Virus record (IMG/VR): IMGVR_UViG_3300031788_000007
Location: 1-64,000 of that record
Direction: 5' to 3' (one strand)
DNA length: 64,000 nt
Origin: a virus
Numbering within the stretch: position 1 is the first letter of the stretch; each line of letters starts with the position of its first letter. The position numbers and the translations under genes were made by a program. This document shows, piece by piece, positions 2,845 through 49,765 of this stretch. A model generated the notes under the pieces. The model had not been told where the DNA came from. It did no database searches and worked only from the letters and a program-made list of their open reading frames with translations.

Positions 2845-4330
2845 ATGGGGATGATTTTTCCAACACTGCACATGAACGGAACGAGCAAGCAACAATTGCT
2901 CGATGACTGTTGCGACATGGGCCATGCGCTCAATGCCGCAATGGAGAAGATGATCGAGAACGGTCCCAATGGCAGGGACTACTACCCTCAAGGCGACCAA
3001 GCCTTTGCTCAGGCCCGGAAAGAGCACATGGACCGCATCGCAAAGATTCACGCCGTTAAGGCTGAGATCGACCAGATTGCAGAGCACATTGCGGACGCGG
3101 AAGGAGGCCGATAGTGGTAAAAATCGGTAGGCGTTACGAGGAGATTGAGCGGCGCTACCCTCTGCTAATCGCGGCGATGAAGTGGGCGGCCATTCTCTCG
3201 ACGACCGAGGCCGTAGACTGCATCAAGGCAATTCAGGAGGAGCGCGGCAGCGGAGAGGCCGTGCAGCACTTTGGAGGCCCGGTGGCAGTGTTTGAGGGCG
3301 CGATGCGGTGCCGGAAGTGGGCGAAGCAGCTTCGCCAGGGAAGGAGGGCAATTTGAGGAGCCCTGATTTCATCATTAAGATCGCAGCCGACAGCATAGAT
3401 CGGTTGCGGCGTTCTGACGTGGAGCGCGTTCTGGAAAATTGCTCTGACGTGGAATTGGGTCCGACCGCAAAGTGGATTGTCGAGAACCGGGCGGATTTGG
3501 CCGTCAAAGTAGAAGACGAAGTGGCCTACCAGGAGGCACAGCGGTTTTCTCCGCATCGGCCAGCCTAAGCAGGGGCCTTGAATCTAAGGCCCACTCACTT
3601 CATTATGGGGATGGAGGCAGTCAATGAGAGCAACGGCACACAACACGAGAGGAGCCTGCCAGCGATGCGGCAAGGTAGGCTGTTTTGTTATGGCCGTAGC
3701 CTTCCAAGGAGACGGGACAGCAACCTTCCGTCACCTGTGCGCCAGTTGTGAGCGGATGGAGAAACACAAGAACGAGCCGCACCTGTTCATCGGGATCGAG
3801 TGGGTATTCATCGGGACGCCTGAGCCGGAGGAAGAGATCGAAGCGGAGCCGGTAGAAGTCTACAGCCCGCAAATGTGTTTGTTTTAATCGCGGCCCAGCC
3901 GCAGGAGGAGGGAAGAATGGAGACATGCCCACAATGTGAAGGAACGCCGGACCTGTGCAACGGCTATTGTGAAGGAACCGGCAAAGTGACGACCAGCCAT
4001 GCGGCAGAGTGGCATCGGCAGAATGATGAACCGAAGGCAGGGAAGACACTGGCCGACTTCGCCCACAGCGGGAAGCTCTTCAAGCGCCCGATGCACGCCA
4101 ACCCGCACGGATTTACGGCAGGCAGTGACAGCCTGAAAGAGATCCGCACATCGACATGGGGCGACCAGATCAACATTTGCTCAGACTTCCCACGGCTGAC
4201 CCGCGAAGACCTCACGGCGACCGACTGGGAAGAAGTAACACTCCCTAAAGAAGTCGAGGAGTACAGGAATTTCGGCGCGAACAACACCACGAACACCGGA
4301 GCCGACGGCCTGTTACCGGCGCTCAGTTAG
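2845..4330 (+). CDS. run of small hypothetical early genes (2845-3114, 3114-3356, ~3353-3568, 3624-3887, 3917-4330)
   Basis: Tightly packed same-strand ORFs with SD sites and overlapping stop/start codons. Confidence 0.6.
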
Positions 4331-4348
4331 TCCAAAATTTGGACTCGT

Positions 4349-4404
4349 GGCTTCTGGTGTTCTGGTGTCGTGGAATCTTCCAGAGCGCCGGGAGCCTTCT
4401 TTTT
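4349..4404 (+). terminator. rho-independent terminator
   Basis: GGCTTCTGGTGTTCTGG pairs with CCAGAGCGCCGGGAGCC (with G-U pairs), followed by TTCTTTTT; directly after palindrome 4329. Confidence 0.7.
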
Positions 4405-4548
4405 GCGGCGAGATCCGAAGGACAGGACGGCCGTCGGAAGCCCCAGGCCGGCGGGAGGGAAGGCAGGATTTAAGCCGCAGGGCAGGGGGATTGCAAACGC
4501 CAGGAACCGCGTTACAGTGAAGGAGTGGCAAGAGCCACAGGAGGAAAG

Positions 4549-8450: not shown

Positions 8451-8480
8451 GCCCCCGGCTTCGGCTGGGGGCTTTCTTTT
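8451..8480 (+). terminator. strong rho-independent terminator
   Basis: GCCCCCGGC-TTCG-GCTGGGGGC followed by TTTCTTTT. Confidence 0.9.
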
Positions 8481-9077
8481 GCCCGGAACCCGGCCAGGGG
8501 CGGAACCGGCAGGGAACGAGGCACGACGTTGCCCCAGGACGCGCCGCCGCATCGGTGGACATACTACGGCACCCGGCAAACGCCAGCCGCAGGACGCCCA
8601 CAGCCAGCCCCAGCCGCCAGCCCCGCAGGGAGGGAAGAGCAGAGCATCCAAGAGGAGAGAGGCATAAGGTAGGAGACGGCACCGCAGTACCACCCTGTTA
8701 CATCGCACTTCCCCAGCCCAGCCAGCTATCGACGCCACCCGCCCGGCAGGCTGCACCGCTTTCAACCCGGCCCCCCGGCCCCTGCCCTGCCCGGCCCGCC
8801 CGCCCCGCGCCCCGCTCGACCGCCGCGCCGCCGCCGCCCCTCCTTCGACGCGCACAGGTGGGGGCAAGGGGGTCGGGTACCCCGTCGCCTTCGGCGACTA
8901 TGTCCATCAGCACAAAACCGAGTTCTCATTTTTGATGTAGGCAGGAAATAGATTTGATTTTGAATTTGAGATTTTAATTTTCAATTCAAGAAAAGTGGGA
9001 GATTTTAAATTTAGCAGTTGCAGGGTATTGTGTTTTGTGAGTGTGGGTTGTATGGTTTGTGAGAGGGTAAGACGGGG
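8481..9077. other. non-coding compositional switch (candidate genome terminus, pac or origin region)
   Basis: C-rich/GC-rich 8760-8850, GGGTACCC palindrome ~8876, AT-rich tract 8925-9012, then G/T-rich + strand. Confidence 0.45.
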
Positions 9078-9359
9078 GTGGGGATGGACATTGGGGTTCA
9101 GGAGTTGATTGATAATTTAGGAAAGATCGCGTTGGTGCGTCAGCATCCTACGGTGCTAGTGATTGTCCACAGTGAGGTTGACTTGGAGATGATGTCGTCA
9201 ACGGGGGATTTTGTAATGAAGATGGGGATGTTGGATGTGGCGAAGCTGATGGTGGTAGACATACATACGCGGTTGAACGAGGAGAACGCGGAGATGTGCC
9301 GGAGGGCAGGGGAAGCGGCAGTGGCGGCTTTGGCGGTAAAACCAGGGAAGGCGAACTAG
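9078..9359 (+). CDS. hypothetical protein
   Basis: 93-aa ORF starting the next gene run. Confidence 0.6.
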   Translation: MGMDIGVQELIDNLGKIALVRQHPTVLVIVHSEVDLEMMSSTGDFVMKMGMLDVAKLMVVDIHTRLNEENAEMCRRAGEAAVAALAVKPGKAN

Positions 9360-9362
9360 GGT

Positions 9363-9662
9363 ATGAACAAGTTTCTGTGGCGGCTATTCGGGATTGAGGA
9401 CGAAGAAGAGTTTGTCGACCTAAGCCGACGCGGGTTCTTGCGTGGGGTGGGAGCGGCAGCGGTTTTGGTGGCGGCTGGACCAAAATTTTTTCTTCCGCCG
9501 ATTGGCGGGTGGAGCCCGGCGGTTGCGGAGCCTGTGTATCAGTTCGGGTTTCTGGAGTGGAAGGATTTGACTGCGGTTACCAACAACTACATCGTGCCGT
9601 TGCTGACAGACAATGTATTCAAGCCAAGCCCATTATTTACAAAGTTGAGGAGGTCGAACTGA
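9363..9662 (+). CDS. Tat-like signal peptide fused to a copy of the major capsid N-terminus
   Basis: SRRGFLR plus hydrophobic stretch; a 33-aa C-terminal segment is 22/33 identical to MCP residues 2-34. Confidence 0.85.
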   Translation: MNKFLWRLFGIEDEEEFVDLSRRGFLRGVGAAAVLVAAGPKFFLPPIGGWSPAVAEPVYQFGFLEWKDLTAVTNNYIVPLLTDNVFKPSPLFTKLRRSN

Positions 9663-9663
9663 T

Positions 9664-10071
9664 ATGGGGACAGAAGCGGAAGAGAAAGAACTGGCGGCTG
9701 CGCGGGAGCATTTAGGGTACTGGCAACGGGAGTTGCGGCTTGACCACGTAGACTTCGAGATTATCTTGATGGCGCCAGAAGACAACAACGGGAACCTGGG
9801 AGACTGCAAGCACTCGTTCGGCCGGCACAGGCAAAAGATTCGGTTGTACAATCCGGCAGACCGGACGGATAAAGACCGAGCGGTTTTCCGGCGCGATTTG
9901 GAAGTTGTGATTGTGCATGAGTTATTGCACACCAAGGAAATGCCGTGGCGGGATCACCCGAAGGTAGATGAGATTTTCGACAAAGACAAGTGGCTGGAGG
10001 GTCTACATGAGGACAGCCTGGACGCGGTGGCCGAGGCTCTTGTGCGGGCTCGGAGAGGGATGAGGAGGTAA
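9664..10071 (+). CDS. zincin-like HExxH metallopeptidase-family protein
   Basis: VIVHELLH motif with a downstream E. Confidence 0.6.
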   Translation: MGTEAEEKELAAAREHLGYWQRELRLDHVDFEIILMAPEDNNGNLGDCKHSFGRHRQKIRLYNPADRTDKDRAVFRRDLEVVIVHELLHTKEMPWRDHPKVDEIFDKDKWLEGLHEDSLDAVAEALVRARRGMRR

Positions 10072-11288: not shown

Positions 11289-11939
11289 ATGGGAACTTCA
11301 AAGCCTGTTCGTGGAGAGGTAGCCTTGAAACTCTATTTCTTCGGGTCAGAGATGGTTTCGCAATCGGCGTATCTTGAGATCGAAATTCTCTACCCGCAAG
11401 AGTTAGAATACCTTCGGAACATTGAAGCGCACATGCTTGCGGTCATCAACGAGTTTGGGATACCGGGGTTGGCCGCTCCACAGATCGGGTTTCCGATTCA
11501 GATGGTAGTGGTGAGGTTATCGGGAGGGAAGCGGTTGACGCTTTTGAATCCTCATATCGAGAGGATGTACGGAGCGGAGACAGAATATCCCGAAGGCTGC
11601 ATAAGTTGCCCTCCAGGCGGAAACCGATGCCCTACGGCGAGGATGCAATTCATCAACGTAATAGGGAGTTCGATCGAAGAGCCGGCAGTTGTGAAAGACT
11701 GGCATTTCTCCAGCAGGGATGCGAGGGTGGTGCAGCATGAAGTAGATCACTTGGCGGGGACATTCTTTGTAGACAGAGCGAGTGTGGTGGAGAAGTCGAA
11801 GGTGTTGGATCAGTTCCACCAGTGGAAGCACACATTCAAACAGAATGGGAGTCCAAATTTTGGACTCACACGAGGAGGACACAATGGCAGAGCAACCACC
11901 AGTACCCAGGCGCAGCATTCCCGAACAGTCACCGCTTGA
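11289..11939 (+). CDS. def: peptide deformylase (copy 1, divergent)
   Basis: GLAAPQIG, EGCIS and QHEVDHLAG motifs. Confidence 0.9.
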   Translation: MGTSKPVRGEVALKLYFFGSEMVSQSAYLEIEILYPQELEYLRNIEAHMLAVINEFGIPGLAAPQIGFPIQMVVVRLSGGKRLTLLNPHIERMYGAETEYPEGCISCPPGGNRCPTARMQFINVIGSSIEEPAVVKDWHFSSRDARVVQHEVDHLAGTFFVDRASVVEKSKVLDQFHQWKHTFKQNGSPNFGLTRGGHNGRATTSTQAQHSRTVTA

Positions 11940-13889: not shown

Positions 13890-16052
13890 ATGGGAATCCG
13901 TCGCGCAAATCCTCACTTAGAAGAAATTATTGAGGTGTTGGACCTCCATCTCCAAAAGTACAGTGGCGATCAAGCGAAGGCCCGCGAGTATCTTTCTAAA
14001 GATGACAATGCTTGGATAGATGCAGAGATACTCCACTGCATGACTGAGCGACGTTACTTCCTATCCAACTACTATGCCATCAAAACTGAGGACCGCGGCT
14101 TCACCGGGTTGTACCCGTTTTGGGATTCGCAGGAGATTCTGCATGACGAATTCCGCCGGCTGGAGAAGCAGTTTGGACGCGTAAAAGCAATCGTCAACAA
14201 GGCTCGACAGATGGGGGGCAGCACGTATGTCTCAGGGGAAGTCTTCGCGGCAACAATCTTCAGTGAGCATGTAAACTCCATCGTCGTAGCTCAGGACGCC
14301 GATGTGACCCGGTACATCCTCGATATGTACGCAGCGGCTCTTGACTTTTTACCGTGGTGGATGCGTCCCCGAATTCGCTATCAAGAGGCCGGAAAATTCA
14401 TCGACTTTGATGAGAAAGACGAAACCCTGCGAATCACTCGCCCAGGACTGAAGACGCGCATCTACGGAGACAACGGGAACAAGCCGACCGGAGTGGGGAG
14501 GTCTAAAACTTTCGCAAGAGCCCACCTCGACGAGTTGCCGTTCTGGACCGATCCAAGCCAACTTACTAAAGCACTATTCCCAACCTTCAACTCCCCCGAC
14601 GGCTTCTATGTAATGATTTCAACCCCTAAGGGGCGTAATAATCCTTGGCACAATATGTGGCGTAAAGCGGAAGCTGGAGACATTGACTGGAACCCGGTCT
14701 ATATTCCGTTTTACAGGCGCGAAAAGACGTACTCTCTGCCGATTCCCAAAGGCGAAGTCTTTACGTTGACGAAGGACGAGGAAGAGATAAAATACCTCGT
14801 TCTCAAAAAAGACGGCTTCGCGATGAAGAACGAAGTCTTCAACTGGCGCCGGAAGAGGATTCAGGAATTCATCGCTAACGATGGCGACGACAAAATGTTC
14901 AATCAGGAATACAGCCTTACCGCAGAGGAGTCTTTCCAGACCTCCGCAGTCACCGCATATCCGTTGGGCATCATCAACAAGCTGATGAAACGAGTGCTGA
15001 ACCCGAAGTGGATTGGGGAGATCAGTTACGACTTCGACGCTGGCCGGCCGAAGGTGATGGTCCGCGAAGTGGAGCCGACTGCCGACTTGGAGTATCCAAA
15101 GCACCACAACCGCTTCAGTGTATGGAAGCGTGAGCGGCCAGGCGCGGTCTATGTCGTAGGGGTGGACGTGAGCCTTGGAAACGACGGCGGCGACTTCTCA
15201 TCAGTCACGGTAATCGACATATCTCTAGACCTGCCGAAGGATGAAGTGGTGGCAGTGTGGCACGGCTATATTGATCCCGAGTCGCTGGCTGATGTAACTC
15301 TAGCAATTTGCTGGATGTACAACGAGGCTCTGGCGGCCGTGGAAGTAAATTCGATGGGCATGGTGACGAACAACAAGTTGGTCCGCCAGTACGAGTACGA
15401 GAACATCTATCGGTACAAGCACCTCGACAAACTGACTCATTGGATGACCGACATTATCGGCTTTTGGACGAATGACAAGACCAAGCGGGCCTTGATGTCG
15501 AAGATGTCGAAGACGCTGATTGATGACTTGCTCAACATTCCAGACAAATTCACCGTCGACGAGTTTTATGATTTCACTGAAGATGGAGCCGAGGGAGACG
15601 GGGCTAGGGACGACCTTATGATGAGTCTTCACATCGCTCTTTACTGCGGCCACGAGGCTGAGTACCGCGAGATGCGGGAGGGGACCAGCAAGCAGGAATC
15701 GACAAAGCAGCAGAATGAATTCAAAATCCTCGACCGATTCGGTACAATCATTCAGACGACGAACTCGCAGCATGAAGCGGAGCGAGTGTCGAAGAAGAAC
15801 ATCGGAAGCAGTATCGTGAGGACGGCGGGGGCGACCGCTACAGTCAACCTGAAGGGATTGGGGGAAAGGAAAGTACCTAGCGATTTTCAGAATAGCGAGT
15901 ACAGCCCTGTGTTTGACGGCAATGGGACGGCTTCGCGCATGTACGAGGACGGGATCGATCCGGAGCTGATAACTCCAGAGGCGATAGCCCAGTACGAGGC
16001 GGATCAGGCGGAACTGGACTCGGATGACGAGAATTCATGGCTTTATCAGTGA
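13890..16052 (+). CDS. terL: terminase large subunit
   Basis: KARQMGGST Walker A, HLDE Walker B, ISTP coupling motif, YVVGVDVSLG..GD/VEVNS/DD RNase-H nuclease; ~130-aa C-terminal extension. Confidence 0.95.
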   Translation: MGIRRANPHLEEIIEVLDLHLQKYSGDQAKAREYLSKDDNAWIDAEILHCMTERRYFLSNYYAIKTEDRGFTGLYPFWDSQEILHDEFRRLEKQFGRVKAIVNKARQMGGSTYVSGEVFAATIFSEHVNSIVVAQDADVTRYILDMYAAALDFLPWWMRPRIRYQEAGKFIDFDEKDETLRITRPGLKTRIYGDNGNKPTGVGRSKTFARAHLDELPFWTDPSQLTKALFPTFNSPDGFYVMISTPKGRNNPWHNMWRKAEAGDIDWNPVYIPFYRREKTYSLPIPKGEVFTLTKDEEEIKYLVLKKDGFAMKNEVFNWRRKRIQEFIANDGDDKMFNQEYSLTAEESFQTSAVTAYPLGIINKLMKRVLNPKWIGEISYDFDAGRPKVMVREVEPTADLEYPKHHNRFSVWKRERPGAVYVVGVDVSLGNDGGDFSSVTVIDISLDLPKDEVVAVWHGYIDPESLADVTLAICWMYNEALAAVEVNSMGMVTNNKLVRQYEYENIYRYKHLDKLTHWMTDIIGFWTNDKTKRALMSKMSKTLIDDLLNIPDKFTVDEFYDFTEDGAEGDGARDDLMMSLHIALYCGHEAEYREMREGTSKQESTKQQNEFKILDRFGTIIQTTNSQHEAERVSKKNIGSSIVRTAGATATVNLKGLGERKVPSDFQNSEYSPVFDGNGTASRMYEDGIDPELITPEAIAQYEADQAELDSDDENSWLYQ

Positions 16053-16959: not shown

Positions 16960-17589
16960 ATGCCAGCATTCAAGACGGAATTTAGCTGTCCGAAGTGCAA
17001 GCGTGAAACGGGGCAGTCGAACCAGATTTCAGCCGCCGAGGGAAGGTTGACGTGCCCGGCCAACTCGAATCATCGGTGGGACGACACCGCGGCCTTCTAC
17101 GCAGACGGGCCTCAAATGGAGTTCAAGGTAGGGCCGGCCAAGTTCCCACCTGTTGAGGGGCAGACGCCGATCACCCTGAAGATACCCTTGCGGATCAAGA
17201 CCGATCTATCCGCTCAGTGGGGGAGTGACGAGGCAGTTTCGGCCAGGGTAGCCGACATCCTTTTACAGATGGCCGAGGGCGAAGTGATGATCCTTGGGAT
17301 GACAGACAAAGGGCGTCTGTTTGACCGCCTTGGACAGAAGTTCTCAAATTCCAGTGAACTTGTTGGCATAGTCTATGCGAAGATGTGTGAAGTAGACGAA
17401 GCCAAGGGTGAGCGGGACGCAGCCGTAGAAGACCTAAAGGCTTACGAGTCGAGGTCGCCGGGGAGGGTTATCGTGGATTTGGGAGACCAGTTCGCAACCG
17501 CTCAGGCGAAGGCTAAGGATGCGGAGACCCCACTCAAGCTCTGGATCGAAGAGCGGACACGGATGGCACTTCAAGAGAACTGGTTTTGA
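16960..17589 (+). CDS. zinc-ribbon plus RHH-like/coiled-coil protein
   Basis: CPKC...CPANSNHRW; ITLKIPLRIK RHH-like strand. Confidence 0.6.
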   Translation: MPAFKTEFSCPKCKRETGQSNQISAAEGRLTCPANSNHRWDDTAAFYADGPQMEFKVGPAKFPPVEGQTPITLKIPLRIKTDLSAQWGSDEAVSARVADILLQMAEGEVMILGMTDKGRLFDRLGQKFSNSSELVGIVYAKMCEVDEAKGERDAAVEDLKAYESRSPGRVIVDLGDQFATAQAKAKDAETPLKLWIEERTRMALQENWF

Positions 17590-17600
17590 TAGGAACTCCA

Positions 17601-19436
17601 ATGACGCTGGACGATTTTCCCGAGATAAGGCAGAAGCCGAGCGAGGAAGATAAGCGGACCTCCTCACGAGCCGAGTATTACATCCAACTCAACAACTGGT
17701 GCGATTCGGTTGTAGAGGAGGGGATAGCACTCCAGCAGGACGTTCCTGAACTCAAGGACATCTCTAACGCCCTCGACTATCTGGTAGGGATGCAGTGGAA
17801 GGATGCAATGCCTTCCTACCGGGCGAAGCCGGTCTCGAACGAGTTCTTATCGATGTTCTGGGAGACGGTTGGGCTCATCACGGACATCCGGCCCACCTCG
17901 CACATCGTCGACATCTCCAACGACGGCAAGTATTCCGAGATTCAGAAAATCCTCAACAACTTGAATAAGGGCTGGGTATCGACCTCCGGGTACGAGCGCC
18001 GGATGGCGTTCTGCATCATGTGGGCGATGTTCACTTCGGCGCCGGCCATGCTGTACTATAACCCGTTCGCCAGGGGAGACAGCGGCGATCCCGAAGACGG
18101 CGACTTGACCCTTGAGGCTCTGCCGCCAAGCTCGATTCTGCGGTTGGGGATGGGTGAAGACCTTCAGGAAGACGAGTGCGTAGTCTATCGCAAGATGCGG
18201 ACGCTAGCGTGGATCAAGCGGGCCTACCCGACGATGGGCAAGTATGTTCAGGCCGAGGAGACCAAGAGCCGGTACACGGTCGACGTACAGAGTCCGATGG
18301 GCGTATCGCCGCAGTTGTACCCACCGCTATCGCCGGGCATGAAGCGGCTTTTAGGGGCAGGTGACAAACAATCCTACGAGAGCAACTTCCCCCAGGCCGA
18401 AGTGCAGCAGTTTCACCGGAAAGACGACTCGATCAATGAGGGTCGAGACAAGATTTGGATGGGTCCAAAGGGCGCACCTTGGGGATACTGGGTCGAGCCG
18501 GGGAAGAAGTTGTACCCCAGAGGCCGCTTATTCATCCGGGCCAACCGGGTCACCCTGTACGACCAGCCAAACCCCTACTTCCATCGGAAGAAGCCGTTCG
18601 CCTCTCTTGGGTTGTACGGAGTGCCGTGGCAGCAGTACGCGATGAGCGTAGTGAAGCCTTGGATGAGCCAGCAGGACATCTTGAATCAGATGATGGCTGG
18701 GATGCTCCAGACGGTAAAGAAGGCGATCAACCCTGCCTTGATGGCGGCCAAGTCAGCTATCAATCCAGCCGCGATGAAGGCGATCGACAGTTCCAAGCCG
18801 GGGTTGAAGATCACCTACAGCCAGAACGCGCCACATCCCCCAACGTGGCAGACGCCTCCAGTTCTGCCAACCTACGTCCTGCAAATCTACACGCAGATTC
18901 TCCAATCGATGAAGCAGAGTTCTGGAGCCGCGGCAATCGGGGATGCGCTCGGGAAGAAGCAGGTTCCTTCAGGAGACTCTCTCGACAAGATTCAGATGGC
19001 GAAGAACACCCCGATCCGGGTCATGGGCCGCAGCGTGGAATGGTTTGCCGACGACATTGGTCAACAGTGGTGCGCTGACGCCTTGCAGTTCTACAGCGCC
19101 GAGCGCCGGATGGAGTTGCTGGGCATGGCCGGTCTCACGAAGGAAGACATGGACGACAGGCCAGGTTCGCTCATCCCTGATGGAATCCAGTCAGAGGCAT
19201 TCGTAAGGCGCTACCACTATCGCACGGAGCGCGGAACCCTACTCCACGTCGAGCAGCAGGAGCGTGTTCCGATTGCGTTCGCTCTACGCAAGGGACGCGA
19301 CCTATCTCGGAAGCAGGTATTCAAGATCCTCAAGTGGAATATCGACCAACAGGCCAACGATGAAGAGTTGAAGGCTGAGGCCGCGGCAATGGCTCAGGCC
19401 CAAGCCGGCGCACCACCGAAAGCGGGGCATAAGTGA
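17601..19436 (+). CDS. portal protein
   Basis: ~610 aa between TerL and scaffold; NPYFHRKKPF...SVVKPWMSQQDILNQ pattern of podovirus-type portals. Confidence 0.85.
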   Translation: MTLDDFPEIRQKPSEEDKRTSSRAEYYIQLNNWCDSVVEEGIALQQDVPELKDISNALDYLVGMQWKDAMPSYRAKPVSNEFLSMFWETVGLITDIRPTSHIVDISNDGKYSEIQKILNNLNKGWVSTSGYERRMAFCIMWAMFTSAPAMLYYNPFARGDSGDPEDGDLTLEALPPSSILRLGMGEDLQEDECVVYRKMRTLAWIKRAYPTMGKYVQAEETKSRYTVDVQSPMGVSPQLYPPLSPGMKRLLGAGDKQSYESNFPQAEVQQFHRKDDSINEGRDKIWMGPKGAPWGYWVEPGKKLYPRGRLFIRANRVTLYDQPNPYFHRKKPFASLGLYGVPWQQYAMSVVKPWMSQQDILNQMMAGMLQTVKKAINPALMAAKSAINPAAMKAIDSSKPGLKITYSQNAPHPPTWQTPPVLPTYVLQIYTQILQSMKQSSGAAAIGDALGKKQVPSGDSLDKIQMAKNTPIRVMGRSVEWFADDIGQQWCADALQFYSAERRMELLGMAGLTKEDMDDRPGSLIPDGIQSEAFVRRYHYRTERGTLLHVEQQERVPIAFALRKGRDLSRKQVFKILKWNIDQQANDEELKAEAAAMAQAQAGAPPKAGHK

Positions 19437-21766: not shown

Positions 21767-22735
21767 ATGCTTACGTGGAATGATCTCACGGGCAAAACGA
21801 ACGATCATATCGTTCCGATCATCACCGACAACGTGTTCAAGTCTTCGCCGGTATTCACCCGCCTCCGCAAAAAGCGGAGATTCGCATTTCCCGGCGGCTT
21901 GACCATTCGCCATAACATCATGTACGCGCCGCTGAAGGGCGGGTTCTTCCAGCGCGGCCAAGCCTTTGACACCTCGGCAGTGCAGACGGACACGGCTCTT
22001 CAGTTCAACCTGAAGTACGCCTATGTGAACGTCACGCTGTATGGTGTGGATCAGGTTCTCAACCGCGGCGCAGAAGCCGCGATGAGTTACGTCTCCTCGA
22101 AGATGGTGAACGCTTCGGGCACGATGGCCCAGATCCTCGGCACCTCGGTCTTCGGTGACGGCCAGGGTACGCTGAACTCAACTCTTGAGTTGGATGGTTT
22201 ATCGGCGGCTGTTGACAACGGCGTGAACTACGCAACTTATGGTGGCATCACCCGGTCGGACATCTCCAGCACAGCGAACACTGGCATCAACTCTTACTAT
22301 GCGGCGCCATCGGCCTTTAACCTTTCTCAAATCCAGACAGCCTTTGGTGCGAGTTGGTTTGGGCAGGAGAAGCCGGACATGCTGCCGACCACGCAGCCGG
22401 TGTGGGATGCGTTCTGGAACAAGCTCCAGCCGCAGCAACGGTTCAACGACGAGACCTCCGACGTTCACGTTGGCTTCAAGTCGTTCAACTGGAACGGTGC
22501 GCAGGTGGTGGTTGACCAGTACCTCTCGGTCCTGGGCGGAACCTACACGATGTTTGGTCTCAACACCAACTACATCTACCTGTACGTCTCCGATGTGCCG
22601 AAGTACCAGTTTGGATTTACGGGCTGGAAGGAAGCGCAGAACACCGACGATGTGGCCGGACAGTATATGTTCGGTGGCAACATGGTTGTTGCCGCATCTC
22701 GCTTGATGTTCAGAGAGGCATTCACGGCCCTGTAA
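21767..22735 (+). CDS. major capsid protein (HK97 fold)
   Basis: 322 aa after scaffold; DNVFKSSP..., LQPQQRF, GFKSFNWNGAQVVVD patterns; highly biased codons. Confidence 0.9.
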   Translation: MLTWNDLTGKTNDHIVPIITDNVFKSSPVFTRLRKKRRFAFPGGLTIRHNIMYAPLKGGFFQRGQAFDTSAVQTDTALQFNLKYAYVNVTLYGVDQVLNRGAEAAMSYVSSKMVNASGTMAQILGTSVFGDGQGTLNSTLELDGLSAAVDNGVNYATYGGITRSDISSTANTGINSYYAAPSAFNLSQIQTAFGASWFGQEKPDMLPTTQPVWDAFWNKLQPQQRFNDETSDVHVGFKSFNWNGAQVVVDQYLSVLGGTYTMFGLNTNYIYLYVSDVPKYQFGFTGWKEAQNTDDVAGQYMFGGNMVVAASRLMFREAFTAL

Positions 22736-34324: not shown

Positions 34325-35520
34325 TGGCACCTATTCCCCTCCTTCTTGTTAGCGACTCCCCTGCGGCCCCAACAGGGCTTGGCAGGATCACGCGAGAGCT
34401 TGCAGTCCGCATCCACGAGAACCTGGGGGACACCTTCCGGCTGGCAACACTGGGCTACGGGGGGAACTATTCCAGCCGCTTCAAGTGGCCGCAGTATCAG
34501 ATTTCCAGACTTGAAGCGTGGAGTGTTCCTGATCTTCCGAGGGTTTGGAAGGACTTCGCTGGCGACGAGAAGGGAATAATTCTGACCATCTGGAATCCTT
34601 CATGGTTGCCCTGGTTGGCCGATCCCGAGAAGTTGGCGCCGGGGACTTTGAAAGACTTCCTGAAAACGAAGCCGTTCGAGCGGTGGGGATACTTCCCCGT
34701 GGATGCGGAAGGCCCGAACGGGAAGCTGCCGGCGGAAGTGGAGATGGTAATTAAGGGGTTCGACAGGCCATTGATGTATACCCAGTGGGCCTCAGACCTT
34801 GTTGAGAATACGTGCGGCTTGAAGGTGCCTCACCTTCCTCACGGGACCGACACGAACATCTTCTATCCCCGCGACAAGAGGGAGATGCGGAAGACGTTCC
34901 TGCGGACGGTGAACGGCTTGGGAGAGCCGAAGGAAGGCGAGAACCCGATGCTGATGGCCGACAGCGTGTTCTTGGTCGGAGCGATTGCCACCAACAGCGC
35001 CCGCAAGGATTGGAACCTCTGCTTCGAGGTGTGCCAGGAGTTGCTTCGCCGCGGAGTCAACGTAGGTCTGTGGGCTCACACAAACGCTCTCAGCAAGCAC
35101 TGGAACATCATGGGGCTGGCGAAGGCTTACGGGATGGAGGGAAGGATCGTTCCAACGGTCACGGAGCTTACAGACGAACAGATGGCCGAGGCGCAGTGCG
35201 CTTGCGATGTGACGATAATGCCGAGTCTGGGAGAAGGTTTTGGACTGCCGATTTTTGAGTCCCTCGCGTGTGGTGTTCCATGTATCCATATCGACTACGC
35301 AGGAGCGGCTGAGTTTCTTCCAGACGAGTACAAAGTGAAGCCGGTTGCTTTTTATGGAGAGGGGTTTTACGCTAACCGGCGCCCTGTCTCTACCCCGTCA
35401 GATTGGGCAGACAAGATTCAAGCGGCATACGGAACTAAGGCGGAACTGCCGAGCAAGTTGACTTGGGAAAATCTGTGGCCGAGGTGGAAGGCGTGGCTTG
35501 AGGATGGGGTAAATGGGTAA
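34321..35520 (+). CDS. glycosyltransferase family 4 (GT-B)
   Basis: SDSPAAPTGLGR, PHGTD, PSLGEGFGLPIFESLACGVP. Confidence 0.92.
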   Translation: MMAPIPLLLVSDSPAAPTGLGRITRELAVRIHENLGDTFRLATLGYGGNYSSRFKWPQYQISRLEAWSVPDLPRVWKDFAGDEKGIILTIWNPSWLPWLADPEKLAPGTLKDFLKTKPFERWGYFPVDAEGPNGKLPAEVEMVIKGFDRPLMYTQWASDLVENTCGLKVPHLPHGTDTNIFYPRDKREMRKTFLRTVNGLGEPKEGENPMLMADSVFLVGAIATNSARKDWNLCFEVCQELLRRGVNVGLWAHTNALSKHWNIMGLAKAYGMEGRIVPTVTELTDEQMAEAQCACDVTIMPSLGEGFGLPIFESLACGVPCIHIDYAGAAEFLPDEYKVKPVAFYGEGFYANRRPVSTPSDWADKIQAAYGTKAELPSKLTWENLWPRWKAWLEDGVNG

Positions 35521-36328
35521 GATTATCGATCTTGAGGGTCAGAGGTTTGGACTACTTGTTGCTCGTAATCGAGCGGGTGTCAATAGGCATGGACAGTCTC
35601 GATGGCTATGCCTGTGCGACTGCGGGGAAGAGACAATTGTGGTTATTGGTAATTTACGCAATGGCATCACGAGGAGTTGCGGATGCTTGAAACACTACGT
35701 ATGCCAAACAAAGTTTAGGACGCACGGAAATTCAAGCGGTGGAGTAAAAACACGAGAATATACAACATGGAGAAACATGCGATCTCGCTGTGGAAATCAA
35801 AATAACACCGAGTGGAAAAACTACGGAGGTCGCGGAATATCTGTTTGCGAGCGTTGGGAATCGTTTGAGAATTTTCTTTTCGATATGGGGAAAAAACCGG
35901 ATGGGTTAAGCCTTGAAAGAGAGGACGTAAACGGAAACTATACCCCGGAAAACTGTCGATGGGCAACACCAAAAGAACAAGTAAAGAACAGGAGAGGAAG
36001 GACTAAATGTAAGCGAGGGCACGAACTAGTGAAGGGTAATGTCTATATCTCCGGTGGGACTCGACACTGCCGAAAGTGTGTTTTGGCGAGAACCTCCAAA
36101 TCCAAGAAACCAACAAATCAGGTTAAGGCTAGAGAATCGTTGGCTTGGGCTGTCAGGTCAGGAAAGATGAAACGACAACCATGTGAAGTCTGCGGAGATC
36201 CTCAATCACATGGGCATCACGAAGATTACAACCACCCATTGTTGGTATCGTGGTTGTGCCCAAAACATCACCTCGACAGACATCATCAACTGCGTCTCCT
36301 TAAGGGAGTGAATGGGGAGACACTGTAG
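35513..36328 (+). CDS. HNH-type homing endonuclease (free-standing)
   Basis: GQRFGLL..WLCLCDCG, YGGRGISVCERW, LEREDVNGNY.PENCRWAT; A-rich relative to neighbours. Confidence 0.85.
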   Translation: MGKIIDLEGQRFGLLVARNRAGVNRHGQSRWLCLCDCGEETIVVIGNLRNGITRSCGCLKHYVCQTKFRTHGNSSGGVKTREYTTWRNMRSRCGNQNNTEWKNYGGRGISVCERWESFENFLFDMGKKPDGLSLEREDVNGNYTPENCRWATPKEQVKNRRGRTKCKRGHELVKGNVYISGGTRHCRKCVLARTSKSKKPTNQVKARESLAWAVRSGKMKRQPCEVCGDPQSHGHHEDYNHPLLVSWLCPKHHLDRHHQLRLLKGVNGETL

Positions 36329-44981: not shown

Positions 44982-46124
44982 ATGACACCCTCAAACATCA
45001 ATTTAACACCTTTCACAAAACTGTGCCGCAAGGGTCTTCACGAGTACGACGCAACCAAGAAGCTCTGTCCTGAATGTTCCCGAGCCACAAAAGCATCTTG
45101 TCAATTGAGGAACAGAGAAAGATATGTAAAAGCCAACAGCGATAGATACTATTCAAACTATGAACGAAGCAAGGCAGAACATGCGGAATATAGGAAGAAG
45201 AATAGAGAGAAAATCAACGCAAGGCAACTAAAATCTTATCATGAGAACTTAGAGCTAAGGAGAAAACAATCAGCTAAGTATTGCCAGAAAAACAGGGAAC
45301 TGGCGGTGTGGAGAGCGATGGTTCTGCGCTGCACGGATACTAAAAATAAACAATATGAGGATTACGGAGCCAGGGGAATCAATGTTCACAGCGAATGGCT
45401 TGGAGAGAATGGGTATAAGGTTTTTCTCCGAGATATGGGGAAGAGACCAAGCGACAAACATACTCTCGACCGGAAGAATAACGATTTAGGGTACACCCCA
45501 GACAACTGCCGGTGGGTTTTGCCTATAGTCCAAGGAAGGAACAAAAGAAACAATCACCTTATCGAGTACAACGGAAAAACTCAATGCTTGTCTGCGTGGG
45601 CAGGGGAAGTCGGTGTGGGTTCTTCTACTCTGGCAAGGAGAATAACCTTCTGGGGTATAGATAGAGCCATGACCCAGAAACCGCGAATTGTGAACCAAGG
45701 GTTTCACCGTCAACTATGCGACCGAGGCGCAGCATGGTTACGCGACGAGAAATCGTGCCATACAGTCTTTACCGAGTGCGCCCGTAACGTGGACGAAAAA
45801 CCCGACGCAATTGGATGGAGTGGTGAATCTACGTACCTCGTTGAATGTAAGACAACGCGTACCAACTTCTTCGACGATGCCAAGAAAAAGATGAGGTTAC
45901 ACCCAGATAGAGGTGTCGGTTTATTCAGGTACTATCTAGTCCCAAAAGGCATGGTTCTACCAAAAGACGTTCCTGAAAAATGGGGACTCCTGTACGATGG
46001 AGATGTAGTGCAAATAGTCAAAGAGGCTGTTCGGTTCGATGTGAGAAATATCGAAGCAGAGACGCACATTCTTTCTCCGCGGCCTGGAAGGTGGAAAAAT
46101 GGGGCAAACAAATCAACTCCCTAA
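44982..46124 (+). CDS. HNH-type endonuclease fused to an MmcB-like PD-(D/E)xK domain
   Basis: YGARGINV..W, LDRKNND.GY.PDNCRW; then PDAIGW...LVECKTTR..F..D, RYYLVP, WGLL. Confidence 0.75.
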   Translation: MTPSNINLTPFTKLCRKGLHEYDATKKLCPECSRATKASCQLRNRERYVKANSDRYYSNYERSKAEHAEYRKKNREKINARQLKSYHENLELRRKQSAKYCQKNRELAVWRAMVLRCTDTKNKQYEDYGARGINVHSEWLGENGYKVFLRDMGKRPSDKHTLDRKNNDLGYTPDNCRWVLPIVQGRNKRNNHLIEYNGKTQCLSAWAGEVGVGSSTLARRITFWGIDRAMTQKPRIVNQGFHRQLCDRGAAWLRDEKSCHTVFTECARNVDEKPDAIGWSGESTYLVECKTTRTNFFDDAKKKMRLHPDRGVGLFRYYLVPKGMVLPKDVPEKWGLLYDGDVVQIVKEAVRFDVRNIEAETHILSPRPGRWKNGANKSTP

Positions 46125-46561: not shown

Positions 46562-47365
46562 ATGGGGACAGCAACATCATTGACTCTGGATATGCTCAAG
46601 GTGATGACGCCAGATAAAGGTCTGGTGTCGGTCGGCGAGGGGCCTTGGGGAGAGATTTACGCCGATTACCTGAAGAACGCCGGAAACAGGAACATTGTTT
46701 GGAAGCGTCGGCAATTGGGTATGACGACGTTCTCTCTGGCGCGAGGGTTCTTGAAGGCCGCCGAAGGGAAGACCTGCATCATCGTTGCCCATCAGTTTGC
46801 TGGAGCGGATTACCTTTGGGATATGGTGGAGACATTCATCGCTAACCTTCCTGCTCCACTGCCGATCAAGTGGAAGAATAGTCAGAAGCGCTATTTTGGA
46901 TTGGATGGGCGCTTCCCAGCGCAATTCCAAATTGGTCACTTGATGATGGCTGGATTTGGATTAGGAATGAATGTAGACTTTGTTCACTTGCAAGAGTTTG
47001 CATGGTGGCCGAGGCGCGATCAGGAGAGGGTGTGGCAGGCTTTGGCTCCATGTCTAAAACCAGACGCCGAGGTAATCATTGAATCCGCTCCAAAAGAAGA
47101 AGATAACGGACTGTTTGACGAAATATGGAAAGGAGCACCCGCATACGGATTCACCCGTCACTTCTTCCCGTGGTGGAGGGATTCTCGTTACGTTGCCGAG
47201 CCCGTCGATCCTAAGAGTCTGAAGAAGGCCGAGAAGGAATTGATTGACGATCATGGATTGACGCTGGAGCAAATCGGCTGGAGGCGCAAGCAGTGTGACA
47301 GATTCATGGAACTCTACGGAAGTGAGAAGATGTTCAAGATGGAGTACAGTGAATCGGTCCAGTAA
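46562..47365 (+). CDS. stand-alone, degenerate terminase ATPase domain
   Basis: WKRRQLGMTT, IIVAH, HLQEFAWW, IIESAP, FFPWW, WRRKQ, MFKMEYS collinear with TerL N-half. Confidence 0.85.
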   Translation: MGTATSLTLDMLKVMTPDKGLVSVGEGPWGEIYADYLKNAGNRNIVWKRRQLGMTTFSLARGFLKAAEGKTCIIVAHQFAGADYLWDMVETFIANLPAPLPIKWKNSQKRYFGLDGRFPAQFQIGHLMMAGFGLGMNVDFVHLQEFAWWPRRDQERVWQALAPCLKPDAEVIIESAPKEEDNGLFDEIWKGAPAYGFTRHFFPWWRDSRYVAEPVDPKSLKKAEKELIDDHGLTLEQIGWRRKQCDRFMELYGSEKMFKMEYSESVQ

Positions 47366-49006: not shown

Positions 49007-49765
49007 GTGATGGGTAAAGAGAAATACGAACCGATCAACACCGCAAGAGAAGATCAAAAGACTATCACCTTTGTGTGCTCTTGCTGCGGTTCCCTCGTCA
49101 GGTCGGACTACACAGACGCACACGACAGGAAATGCGGGACGCCTGCGGAAAAGGGGATGGATGTGGTGTCAAATATGACTACCAAAGTTCTCGAATTAGT
49201 TGATGAGAGGAGAAAATCGGCTCCATCTCCGATACAAATATGGAGATTCCCTGAACCTGGGAAGTCCTATATTTTAGCGGCTGATCCCTGTACGGGGAGC
49301 GAGGGAGGAGACAATGCGGCGATTGAAGTGATCGACGCAGAGACGGGGGAGCAATGCGCCGAGTTTGCCGCAGTGGTTTCCCCGGAAGACTTAGCTCCCA
49401 TAATCCTTGATTTGGCGCAAAGGTACAACAGTGCGGAAGTGGCAGTCGAGGTGAACAGCGTCGGGCTGATTACAAACAACATCCTGATACGCCAATACGA
49501 GAACGTCTATCGCTATAAGCGCCTAGATAGGGTCAACCATACCGTGACCGATCTTATCGGTTGGTGGACGGACGTAAAAAAAACGAAGGCACTGATGGAA
49601 TCAGCATTCCGCGTAAGCGTTGAGAGGAATCCAAAACTGCTTAACAGCGCGGGCCTGATTGCCGAAATCCTTGCCTATGACGAGAATGGGTATGAGAAGA
49701 ATGATCGGTTCTCGGCGATGATGATTGCTCAAGCGGTTCGTGCCGAAAGAATGGTTACAGTCTAG
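49007..49765 (+). CDS. stand-alone terminase nuclease domain with N-terminal Cys knuckle
   Basis: YILAADPCTG..GGD, AVEVNS; 29/43 identical to TerL over AVEVNS...IGWWT. Confidence 0.9.
   Translation: MMGKEKYEPINTAREDQKTITFVCSCCGSLVRSDYTDAHDRKCGTPAEKGMDVVSNMTTKVLELVDERRKSAPSPIQIWRFPEPGKSYILAADPCTGSEGGDNAAIEVIDAETGEQCAEFAAVVSPEDLAPIILDLAQRYNSAEVAVEVNSVGLITNNILIRQYENVYRYKRLDRVNHTVTDLIGWWTDVKKTKALMESAFRVSVERNPKLLNSAGLIAEILAYDENGYEKNDRFSAMMIAQAVRAERMVTV

Follow-up and report, generated by a model that had tools for sequence, protein, structure and literature searches.

The open reading frame (ORF) at positions 9363–9662 of the window, the 64,000-nucleotide stretch of viral DNA analyzed here, encodes a small protein (P0001) in which a leader of the twin-arginine (Tat) type is joined to two pieces copied from the major capsid protein (MCP) of the same phage. 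The gene is real, is under purifying selection, and is optional. Judged from its sequence, P0001 may be a membrane-targeted mimic of the capsid arm that catches a ligand of this arm in phage–host or phage–phage conflict; this reading is the preferred one, and it is held tentatively, as somewhat short of probable.

Genomic setting of the mini-protein gene

The window corresponds to the first 64 kb of an IMG/VR record of 78,982 bp that is 81% complete, and all of its recognizable genes lie on the + strand (Table 1). In a tightly packed unit, the P0001 gene comes second. It begins 3 nt after the upstream 93-aa ORF, which is kept in the relative G012 and not in G015, and it ends 1 nt before the downstream 135-aa ORF, whose Shine-Dalgarno sequence (GAGGAGG) is found inside the last codons of the P0001 gene. 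The 135-aa product has an HExxH-type motif and no family match, and its gene is kept in relatives with or without the P0001 gene. The MCP gene lies 12.1 kb away, in agreement with the 12 kb given in an earlier note on this DNA.

Several further features of the window were recorded. Positions 8483–9077, 3′ of the terminator-like hairpin, comprise approximately 600 nt without a convincing ORF; the stretch from 8480 to 8920 is very C-rich and is followed by an AT-rich segment (8925–9010) that may hold the promoter of the P0001 unit. The same transcription unit contains, upstream of the large terminase (TerL) gene, a peptide deformylase gene (11289–11939; PF01327, E 1.2e-21). Beyond the MCP gene, the window encodes an RNA ligase, glycosyltransferases, and an ORF of 3828 aa. 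Two separate ORFs are paralogues of parts of TerL: 46562–47365 resembles the ATPase part (TerL residues 99–346, 25% identity, E 4e-10) and 49007–49765 the nuclease part (TerL residues 411–579, 37% identity, E 8e-30). Both lack a Tat leader, and no match to them was found in PADLOC or NCBIfam. In the virion-gene region, ORFs 35513–36328 and 44982–46124 form an internal paralogue pair (37% identity over 120 residues, E 4e-18).

Table 1 Features of the window that bear on the P0001 gene and its two copied pieces
Feature	Position	Strand	Basis or remark
Intrinsic-terminator-like hairpin closing the preceding unit	8451–8482	+
Upstream 93-aa ORF, opens the transcription unit	9078–9359	+	No family match
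Mini-protein gene (P0001), 99 aa, ATG start	9363–9662	+	ORF list and translation
N-peptide MNKFLWxLFGI and acidic linker, residues 1–19	9363–9419	+	Subfamily-specific
Tat-type signal, residues 20–45: SRRGFLR, Gly/Ala-rich h-region GVGAAAVLVAAG, then Pro-Lys	9420–9497	+
Motif PKFFLPPIGGW behind the h-region, residues 40–50	9480–9512	+	P40, G49, and W50 invariant in alignment A1
Copy of MCP strand motif 278–289, residues 57–68	9531–9566	+	BLASTP
Copy of MCP N-terminal arm, residues 64–97	9552–9653	+	BLASTP to MCP 2–35
Downstream 135-aa ORF, HELLH motif, conserved right flank of the variable slot	9664–10071	+	Approximately 70% nucleotide identity in G012, G013, and G015
TerL	13890–16052	+
Portal	17586–19436	+
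MCP, 322 aa, source of both copied pieces	21767–22735	+	N-arm codons 21770–21871; motif codons 22598–22633

The tail carries two pieces of the major capsid protein

Using BLASTP, the last third of P0001 was aligned to the MCP N-terminus without gaps (E 8e-15): 22 of 34 positions are identical and 29 of 34 are similar. This is the match that the earlier note had counted as 22/33. When the MCP was used to search the whole record, two sites only were returned, the MCP gene and the P0001 site (E 2.9e-11), and an all-versus-all BLASTP of the + strand frames of the window recovered the same P0001–MCP pair. A second copied piece was missed in the first reading: P0001 residues 57–68 (PVYQFGFLEWKD) match MCP residues 278–289 (PKYQFGFTGWKE) at 8 of 12 positions (E 0.001). 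The corresponding MCP motif is nearly invariant across 120 MCP relatives (58–94% identity), residues 281–284 within it are predicted to form a β-strand in the MCP model, and the homologue L015 has the sequence YQFGFTGWKE, which is identical to MCP 280–289 at 10 of 10 positions. In the P0001 tail, the two pieces meet at a resemblance between TGWKE and LTWND.

The arm copy is old. It shares 58% nucleotide identity with the MCP DNA, only 10 of 34 third positions are identical, and the longest identical run is 6 nt; these values bear out the divergence at the DNA level that had been claimed, and recent gene conversion between the tail and the MCP was rejected on them. A similarity that would reach upstream of the MCP start codon was also rejected, since MCPs begin with M-L-T-W and the upstream frames differ.

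The identity of the MCP is well defined. Its sequence matches NF033394 (capsid_maj_Podo) with 150.9 bits (cut-off 80) and phrog_9953 with an E value of 1.5e-41. No solved structure was found for it by sequence, and the HK97 fold of its AF2 model (pLDDT 79.9, pTM 0.77) was confirmed by a Foldseek comparison with the PDB, which returned many phage capsids. The NF033394 model also matches the tails of 6 of the 19 members of the P0001 subfamily. P0001 is nevertheless not a capsid protein: in its tail, the homology to an NF033394 member covers the first 35 residues and the stretch 278–289, and with approximately 46 of 322 residues it lacks a full HK97-fold domain (N-arm, E-loop, P and A domains) and cannot form this fold. 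The AF2 model of P0001 itself is helical and of low confidence (pLDDT 55), and a complex prediction of the MCP with tail residues 44–99, made with no controls alongside, gave a score of 0.00 and allows no verdict.

A Tat-type leader precedes the tail

The leader region scores 26.4 bits with TIGR01409, the Tat model curated by NCBI (cut-off 16.7), and 18 of the 19 subfamily members match this model. With PF10518, P0001 reaches 17.5 bits, below the cut-off of 22.7, and 17 of the 19 members match at E≤0.1. The proposal of a Tat-like leader fused to the capsid N-arm is upheld as an architecture, with one of the two models passed and the other falling below its cut-off. SRRGFLR at residues 21–27 follows the twin-arginine consensus (S/T)-R-R-x-F-L-K, and R22, R23, F25, L26, and P40 are invariant in the 19 sequences of alignment A1. 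Among 165 members of the wider family described below, the residue before the arginine pair is N, S, D, or T, and FLK or FLR comes next in 129. The pair stands at residues 22–23 in P0001 and at 3–4 in most of the wider family. As in other Tat leaders, the position is N-terminal and the core is uncharged and moderately hydrophobic over approximately 12–20 residues: the median uncharged stretch of the 165 members is 15 residues, and 13-residue Kyte-Doolittle windows of P0001 give 1.5–1.9. The motif that follows the core in P0001 corresponds to the wider-family hallmark P-x-Y-F-F-A-P-x-G-G-W (F27, P30, G33, and W34 invariant in alignment A3). The Rieske/PetC signal-anchor model is touched by two members, and the nearest ESM Atlas clusters are Tat-signal proteins. 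AxA patterns in these Ala-rich cores are ambiguous, occurring in 72 of 165 members with a following Pro and in 68 of 165 without.

P0001 thus resembles Tat signals and Rieske-type anchors (TIGR01409, PF10518, PF25471) in the S-R-R-x-F-L-(K/R) motif, the short Gly/Ala-rich core, and the basic residue after it. Two differences set it apart. Its passenger is not a cofactor enzyme but approximately 45 residues of the shell protein of its own phage, and its subfamily adds a strictly conserved 19-residue extension before the arginine pair. Within this extension, M1, N2, F4, L5, W6, L8, F9, and D19 are invariant in alignment A1. Members of the wider family lack the N-peptide, most of them beginning 2–6 residues before the arginine pair, and no match to it was found elsewhere in the window. 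Such conservation is not expected of a Tat n-region and suggests that the N-peptide may make a cytoplasmic contact of its own.

The gene is under purifying selection

Metagenomes contain 18 homologues of P0001 (76–123 aa, 47–87% identity). Loss of the MCP-like tail in homologues, which the earlier note had named as a check on its proposal, was not seen: except in P0010, where the tail is truncated, both halves of the protein are kept in all of them. In eight DNA copies, the dN/dS ratio is 0.07–0.17 for the leader half and 0.2–0.5 for the tail, with synonymous sites at or near saturation. Six arm residues with no or almost no variation among MCPs (I15, P17, D21, K25, S27, and P28) are kept in 25–29 of 29 tails. 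Other MCP-invariant positions (K10, N12, T31, and R32) are free to vary in the tails, and the C-terminal ends of the homologues are ragged and vary in length. The tail is therefore under part of the constraint of the real arm, which suggests that the two may share a ligand. A search for longer, fused forms of P0001 found none at E≤0.01, which is weak evidence, and a tblastn search of 50,697 phage records with P0001 gave no match.

The gene occupies a polymorphic slot

Three relatives with MCPs 92–97% identical to that of the window (G012, G013, and G015) are syntenic on both sides of the slot and contain an unrelated ORF of 78–116 aa inside it. In one of them (L031/G013), residues 1–50 of the MCP are identical to those of the window MCP, yet the P0001 gene is absent. 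Searches with either profile likewise found no copy in two complete relatives with terminal repeats (G002 and G003) and in a 91%-complete one (G001). The sister MCP clade is represented by 21 records, of which nine are at least 90% complete, and none of the 21 has a small gene. The tails of the A5 group resemble the MCP arm of this sister clade (up to 49 bits); with the small gene in 0 of the 21 records, the clade provides no direct proof that tail and MCP vary together.

Over 20 metagenome runs from peat contain the window stretch. Four of these were examined; in three, some contigs carry the P0001 gene unchanged, whereas others carry an alternative cassette joined at position 9677; both alleles therefore coexist in nature. 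The P0001 sequence is identical or nearly so in contigs of several runs. The alternative cassette encodes a 78-aa protein in L084 (723–959) and a 116-aa ORF in L083 (2275–2625; 91 aa from an internal Met). Its product has no signal sequence and belongs to no family, and its end (…DRVRGL) joins the window at 9677 in three peat runs. A scan with the family motif found no copy in the species-representative genomes of GTDB (185,579 bacterial and archaeal species).

P0001 belongs to a large family of leader mini-proteins

A profile of the 19 subfamily sequences was searched against 1.84 billion cluster representatives (E≤0.001), and the matches, clustered at 50% identity, form 201 clusters of proteins that are nearly all 75–150 aa long. 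These proteins share a layout of M-(N/D)-R-R-x-F-L-K, an Ala/Pro-rich core, and the hallmark motif described above, after which the tails are very heterogeneous. P0001, which the earlier note had treated as a single fusion, is instead part of a large family in phages of soil and peat, in which different pieces of the MCP are copied into the tails. The same note had suggested a search for RRxFL leaders joined to MCP N-termini in other phages, and such fusions do occur: the N-arm core motif is present in 25 of 145 family representatives compared with 0.03 expected from shuffled tails, a number to be read with the bias toward arm-like tails that results from the inclusion of the tail in the search profile. 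The motif stands behind at least three different middle modules. In P0164, the arm is followed by the next strand and then by QFGF, which is the opposite order to that in the window subfamily, where the strand motif precedes the arm. This reversal argues that the two MCP elements may work together; judged from HK97-fold topology, the C-proximal strands of the P domain would lie next to the strand that succeeds the N-arm. When 145 members were scanned against PHROGs, all of the annotated matches were to head proteins (MCPs of three families, a structural protein, and a portal).

Among the cases with a readable cognate MCP, the tail has its best match in its own MCP in five and no match in three. 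The window tail matches residues 2–35 of its MCP with 53.5 bits. In the Tunturiibacter phage Tunturi_2, gp99 matches residues 5–56 of gp8 (40% over 52 aa, 33.1 bits, E ~1e-7). The tail of L089 matches an internal motif of its MCP (55% over 29 aa, 44.7 bits, E 2.5e-10), that of L111 the N-terminal region (E 0.009), and that of L097 the C-terminal region (24.6 bits, E 0.002–0.003). For G020 (a complete genome), G019, and L087, no significant match of the tail to the own MCP was found. Compared with the window MCP, the Tunturi_2 tail gives an E value of 0.009 only, and the MCP type of L111 matches a related tail, P0157, with an E value of 3e-8. The MCPs of the matching cases are 22% identical to each other or cannot be aligned, and the tails match their own MCPs despite this divergence, so they track the capsids of their own phages, whether through co-divergence or repeated capture. 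The idea, prompted by L093 and L096, that tails also copy TerL motifs was rejected: the G020 tail compared with its own TerL has a z of 1.55, which is not significant, and 28 of 300 shuffles reach its score.

The position of the small gene varies among these phages. In L089 and L111, it lies between the portal gene and a scaffold-like gene, with the MCP gene behind the latter; in L089, its start overlaps the portal stop. It lies just upstream of the portal gene in L087 and L097, overlaps the TerL start in L091, and is 0.5 kb before a TerL-like gene in L090. In the window and in Tunturi_2, it is 3–4 kb upstream of TerL on the same strand. In a tblastn search of the 50,697 phage records with a wider-family query (P0155), Tunturi_1 and Tunturi_2 only were matched. 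These phages were cultured on Tunturiibacter psychrotolerans, and the family is thus present in phages of an Acidobacteriota genus. The paper that describes the Tunturi phages gives gp99 no function (PMC11924767). No description of such genes, with a leader and a capsid piece, was found in the literature.

A number of related loci were also observed. In record G020, a phage GroEL gene (L093, 10809–12479; phrog_5725, E 7e-118) lies 0.5 kb downstream of the leader mini-protein gene. Record G005, with an MCP 77% identical to that of the window, contains a 72-aa ORF on the − strand (L086, 2888–3106) that has an RRSFLK leader and an unrelated tail and adjoins a tail-fibre-like gene; it is possibly another leader mini-protein. 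A D-x-S-R-R-G-F-L-K-G leader precedes LysM and lytic-transglycosylase domains in L003 (9983–10870), L004, L007, L009, and L011; several of these leaders are placed hundreds of residues into very long frames, and the products may be exported lysins or the leaders may be buried. In two related viral contigs, the MCP gene is interrupted, by approximately 1.1 kb after codon 23 in L043 (~3387–4473) and by approximately 0.73 kb near codons 86–91 in L059 (~9272–10001). Both interruptions resemble intron or homing-endonuclease insertions, and L111 has an endonuclease-like ORF between its scaffold and MCP genes.

Discussion

If P0001 is a membrane-targeted mimic, the host Tat pathway would insert it into the membrane or export it. 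The leader would probably remain as an uncleaved N-in/C-out anchor, as in Rieske proteins, and the N-peptide would be cytoplasmic; the conserved Pro after the leader core suggests such an anchor, with the tail outside the cytoplasm. Alternatively, as Tat acts after folding, the tail could bind a partner first and carry it along. The tail would imitate the corner formed by the N-arm and the P domain of a capsid subunit. It keeps the invariant residues of the real arm and so should bind one natural ligand of the arm, which would be held at the membrane or beyond it. Candidate ligands are a host sensor that reads capsid protein, a protein from a related phage that superinfects, and a satellite protein. 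Because the phage can do without the gene, the slot varies within single samples, and prophages lack it, this ligand is taken to be a factor in conflict and not a core partner in assembly. Conflict genes usually show this signature of an optional gene at a site that varies within a sample. Several observations count against the mimic reading. The leader scores below the PF10518 cut-off, the position of the gene in the head modules of other phages looks morphogenetic, the similarity of the tail to the own MCP is not universal among the family, as the three cases without such a match show, and the search profile favored arm-like tails.

The three functions that the earlier note had put forward for the protein fare differently. 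The protein may be a decoy for a capsid sensor. To our knowledge, the known capsid sensors act in the cytoplasm, and the Tat leader would remove the tail from this compartment, which also counts against the mimic reading. Tethering of procapsids to the membrane is weakened by the close relatives that lack the gene while their MCP is identical over residues 1–50. Poisoning of the assembly of a competing phage fits least, as the tail resembles the own MCP best and the leader would export it from the compartment in which assembly takes place. A broader version of the mimic reading is that phages widely counter host or rival defences with export-tagged copies of their hallmark head proteins, a generalization considered rather unlikely. 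In such a scheme, the copied segment would bind a host sensor of that segment or the capsid-binding protein of a rival element, and the leader would pull the factor, once bound, to the inner membrane or across it, disarming it as capsid protein accumulates. Tat is able to move folded complexes.

The strongest alternative, which is judged doubtful although it is a real contender, is that P0001 helps or regulates head assembly: a membrane-associated, MCP-like arm would dock on the coat, scaffold, or portal and would nucleate, tether, or time procapsids. T4 gp40, which supports portal-initiated assembly at the membrane, offers a functional parallel. The retention of the arm's invariant residues is consistent with this role, as are the location of seven members (L089, L111, L087, L097, L091, L090, and L093) inside head or packaging modules and the same-strand placement 3–4 kb before TerL in the window and Tunturi_2. 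However, the gene is missing from close relatives with identical MCP residues 1–50 and also from complete genomes of relatives; it is therefore not needed for the assembly of this capsid. In addition, an N-in/C-out anchor of the Tat type would put the tail where no capsid assembles, and P0001 has no sequence relation to gp40 or to any PHROG family.

Less likely again is an origin of the tails as by-products, in which the leader or membrane module does the work (for example in lysis timing or injection blocking) and the tails are captured scraps of head genes under loose constraint. The leader half is indeed the more conserved by dN/dS, the C-termini are ragged, the tails of the 201 clusters are heterogeneous, and some, as in the complete genome G020, have no detectable source there; the microhomology at the joint of the two pieces is also like a recombination scar. 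Neutral scraps, though, would be expected to lose the MCP-invariant residues, which nearly all tails keep despite saturated synonymous sites. Both MCP elements are met again in other orders and with other middle modules, the enrichment of the arm motif far exceeds that of shuffled tails, and the window gene is not adjacent to the MCP gene.

That P0001 is the precursor of an exported signal, from which the leader is cleaved to release a capsid-derived peptide for phage–phage or phage–host signaling in the manner of AimP of arbitrium, is very unlikely. The small size, N-terminal export leader, variable C-terminal part, and an AVA-EP site at residues 53–57 would suit such a precursor, but this site is not conserved in the homologues, no receptor or peptidase gene is linked, and the conserved tail of 20–35 residues copies a structural element, for which a short signaling peptide has no need. 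A decaying remnant without function is hardly credible: only the absence of the gene from close relatives favors it, and against it stand a frame open in all 18 homologues, dN/dS ratios well below 1, and sequences that are identical or near-identical across peat runs.

Scans of P0001 for known families yielded only the Tat signal model in Pfam and no match in PHROGs, and PADLOC gave nothing meaningful for P0001 or its neighbors. Several known systems offer functional parallels. SaPI CpmB is a cytoplasmic protein of a satellite that copies the scaffold C-terminus and competes for a capsid-assembly site. Like CpmB and satellite capsid redirectors, P0001 is a small protein with a conserved copy of a segment from a capsid-assembly protein; that the arm is a binding segment of this kind is presumed from other HK97-fold phages. 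Unlike CpmB, it comes from a phage, the copied piece is the MCP arm of that phage itself, and an export leader is attached. Small membrane or periplasmic conflict proteins of lytic phages include T4 Imm, Sp, and the antiholin RI. P0001 is similar to these accessory proteins in its size range (approximately 80–100 residues), its weakly hydrophobic N-terminal anchor, and a short tail predicted to be extracytoplasmic, but it has no sequence relation to them, and none of them has a capsid copy or a Tat motif. Short conserved stretches or folded forms of the MCP are also read by host immunity: the Lit protease is triggered by the Gol peptide of T4 gp23, and capsid-sensing systems based on TIR domains were reportedly described by Roberts et al. 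in 2025, a study cited in the preprint bioRxiv 10.64898/2026.06.04.730250. A reader of this type could be the ligand of the mimic. Gol and similar elements are triggers themselves, whereas a free, phage-encoded copy that blocks sensing is not described among them.

If the tail is a mimic, these genes would represent a new design principle in phages, in which the most conserved and hence most recognizable stretch of the own shell is displayed on a membrane-targeting leader. The mimic would also point to a reader of this stretch, which may be an assembly partner, an immune sensor, or a rival phage's ejection protein. Even if the role of the family is morphogenetic, a Tat-targeted protein of the head module would be new. 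Very little is known of soil systems of the Acidobacteriota type, and here a large family with a cultured member is available that is small enough for genetics.
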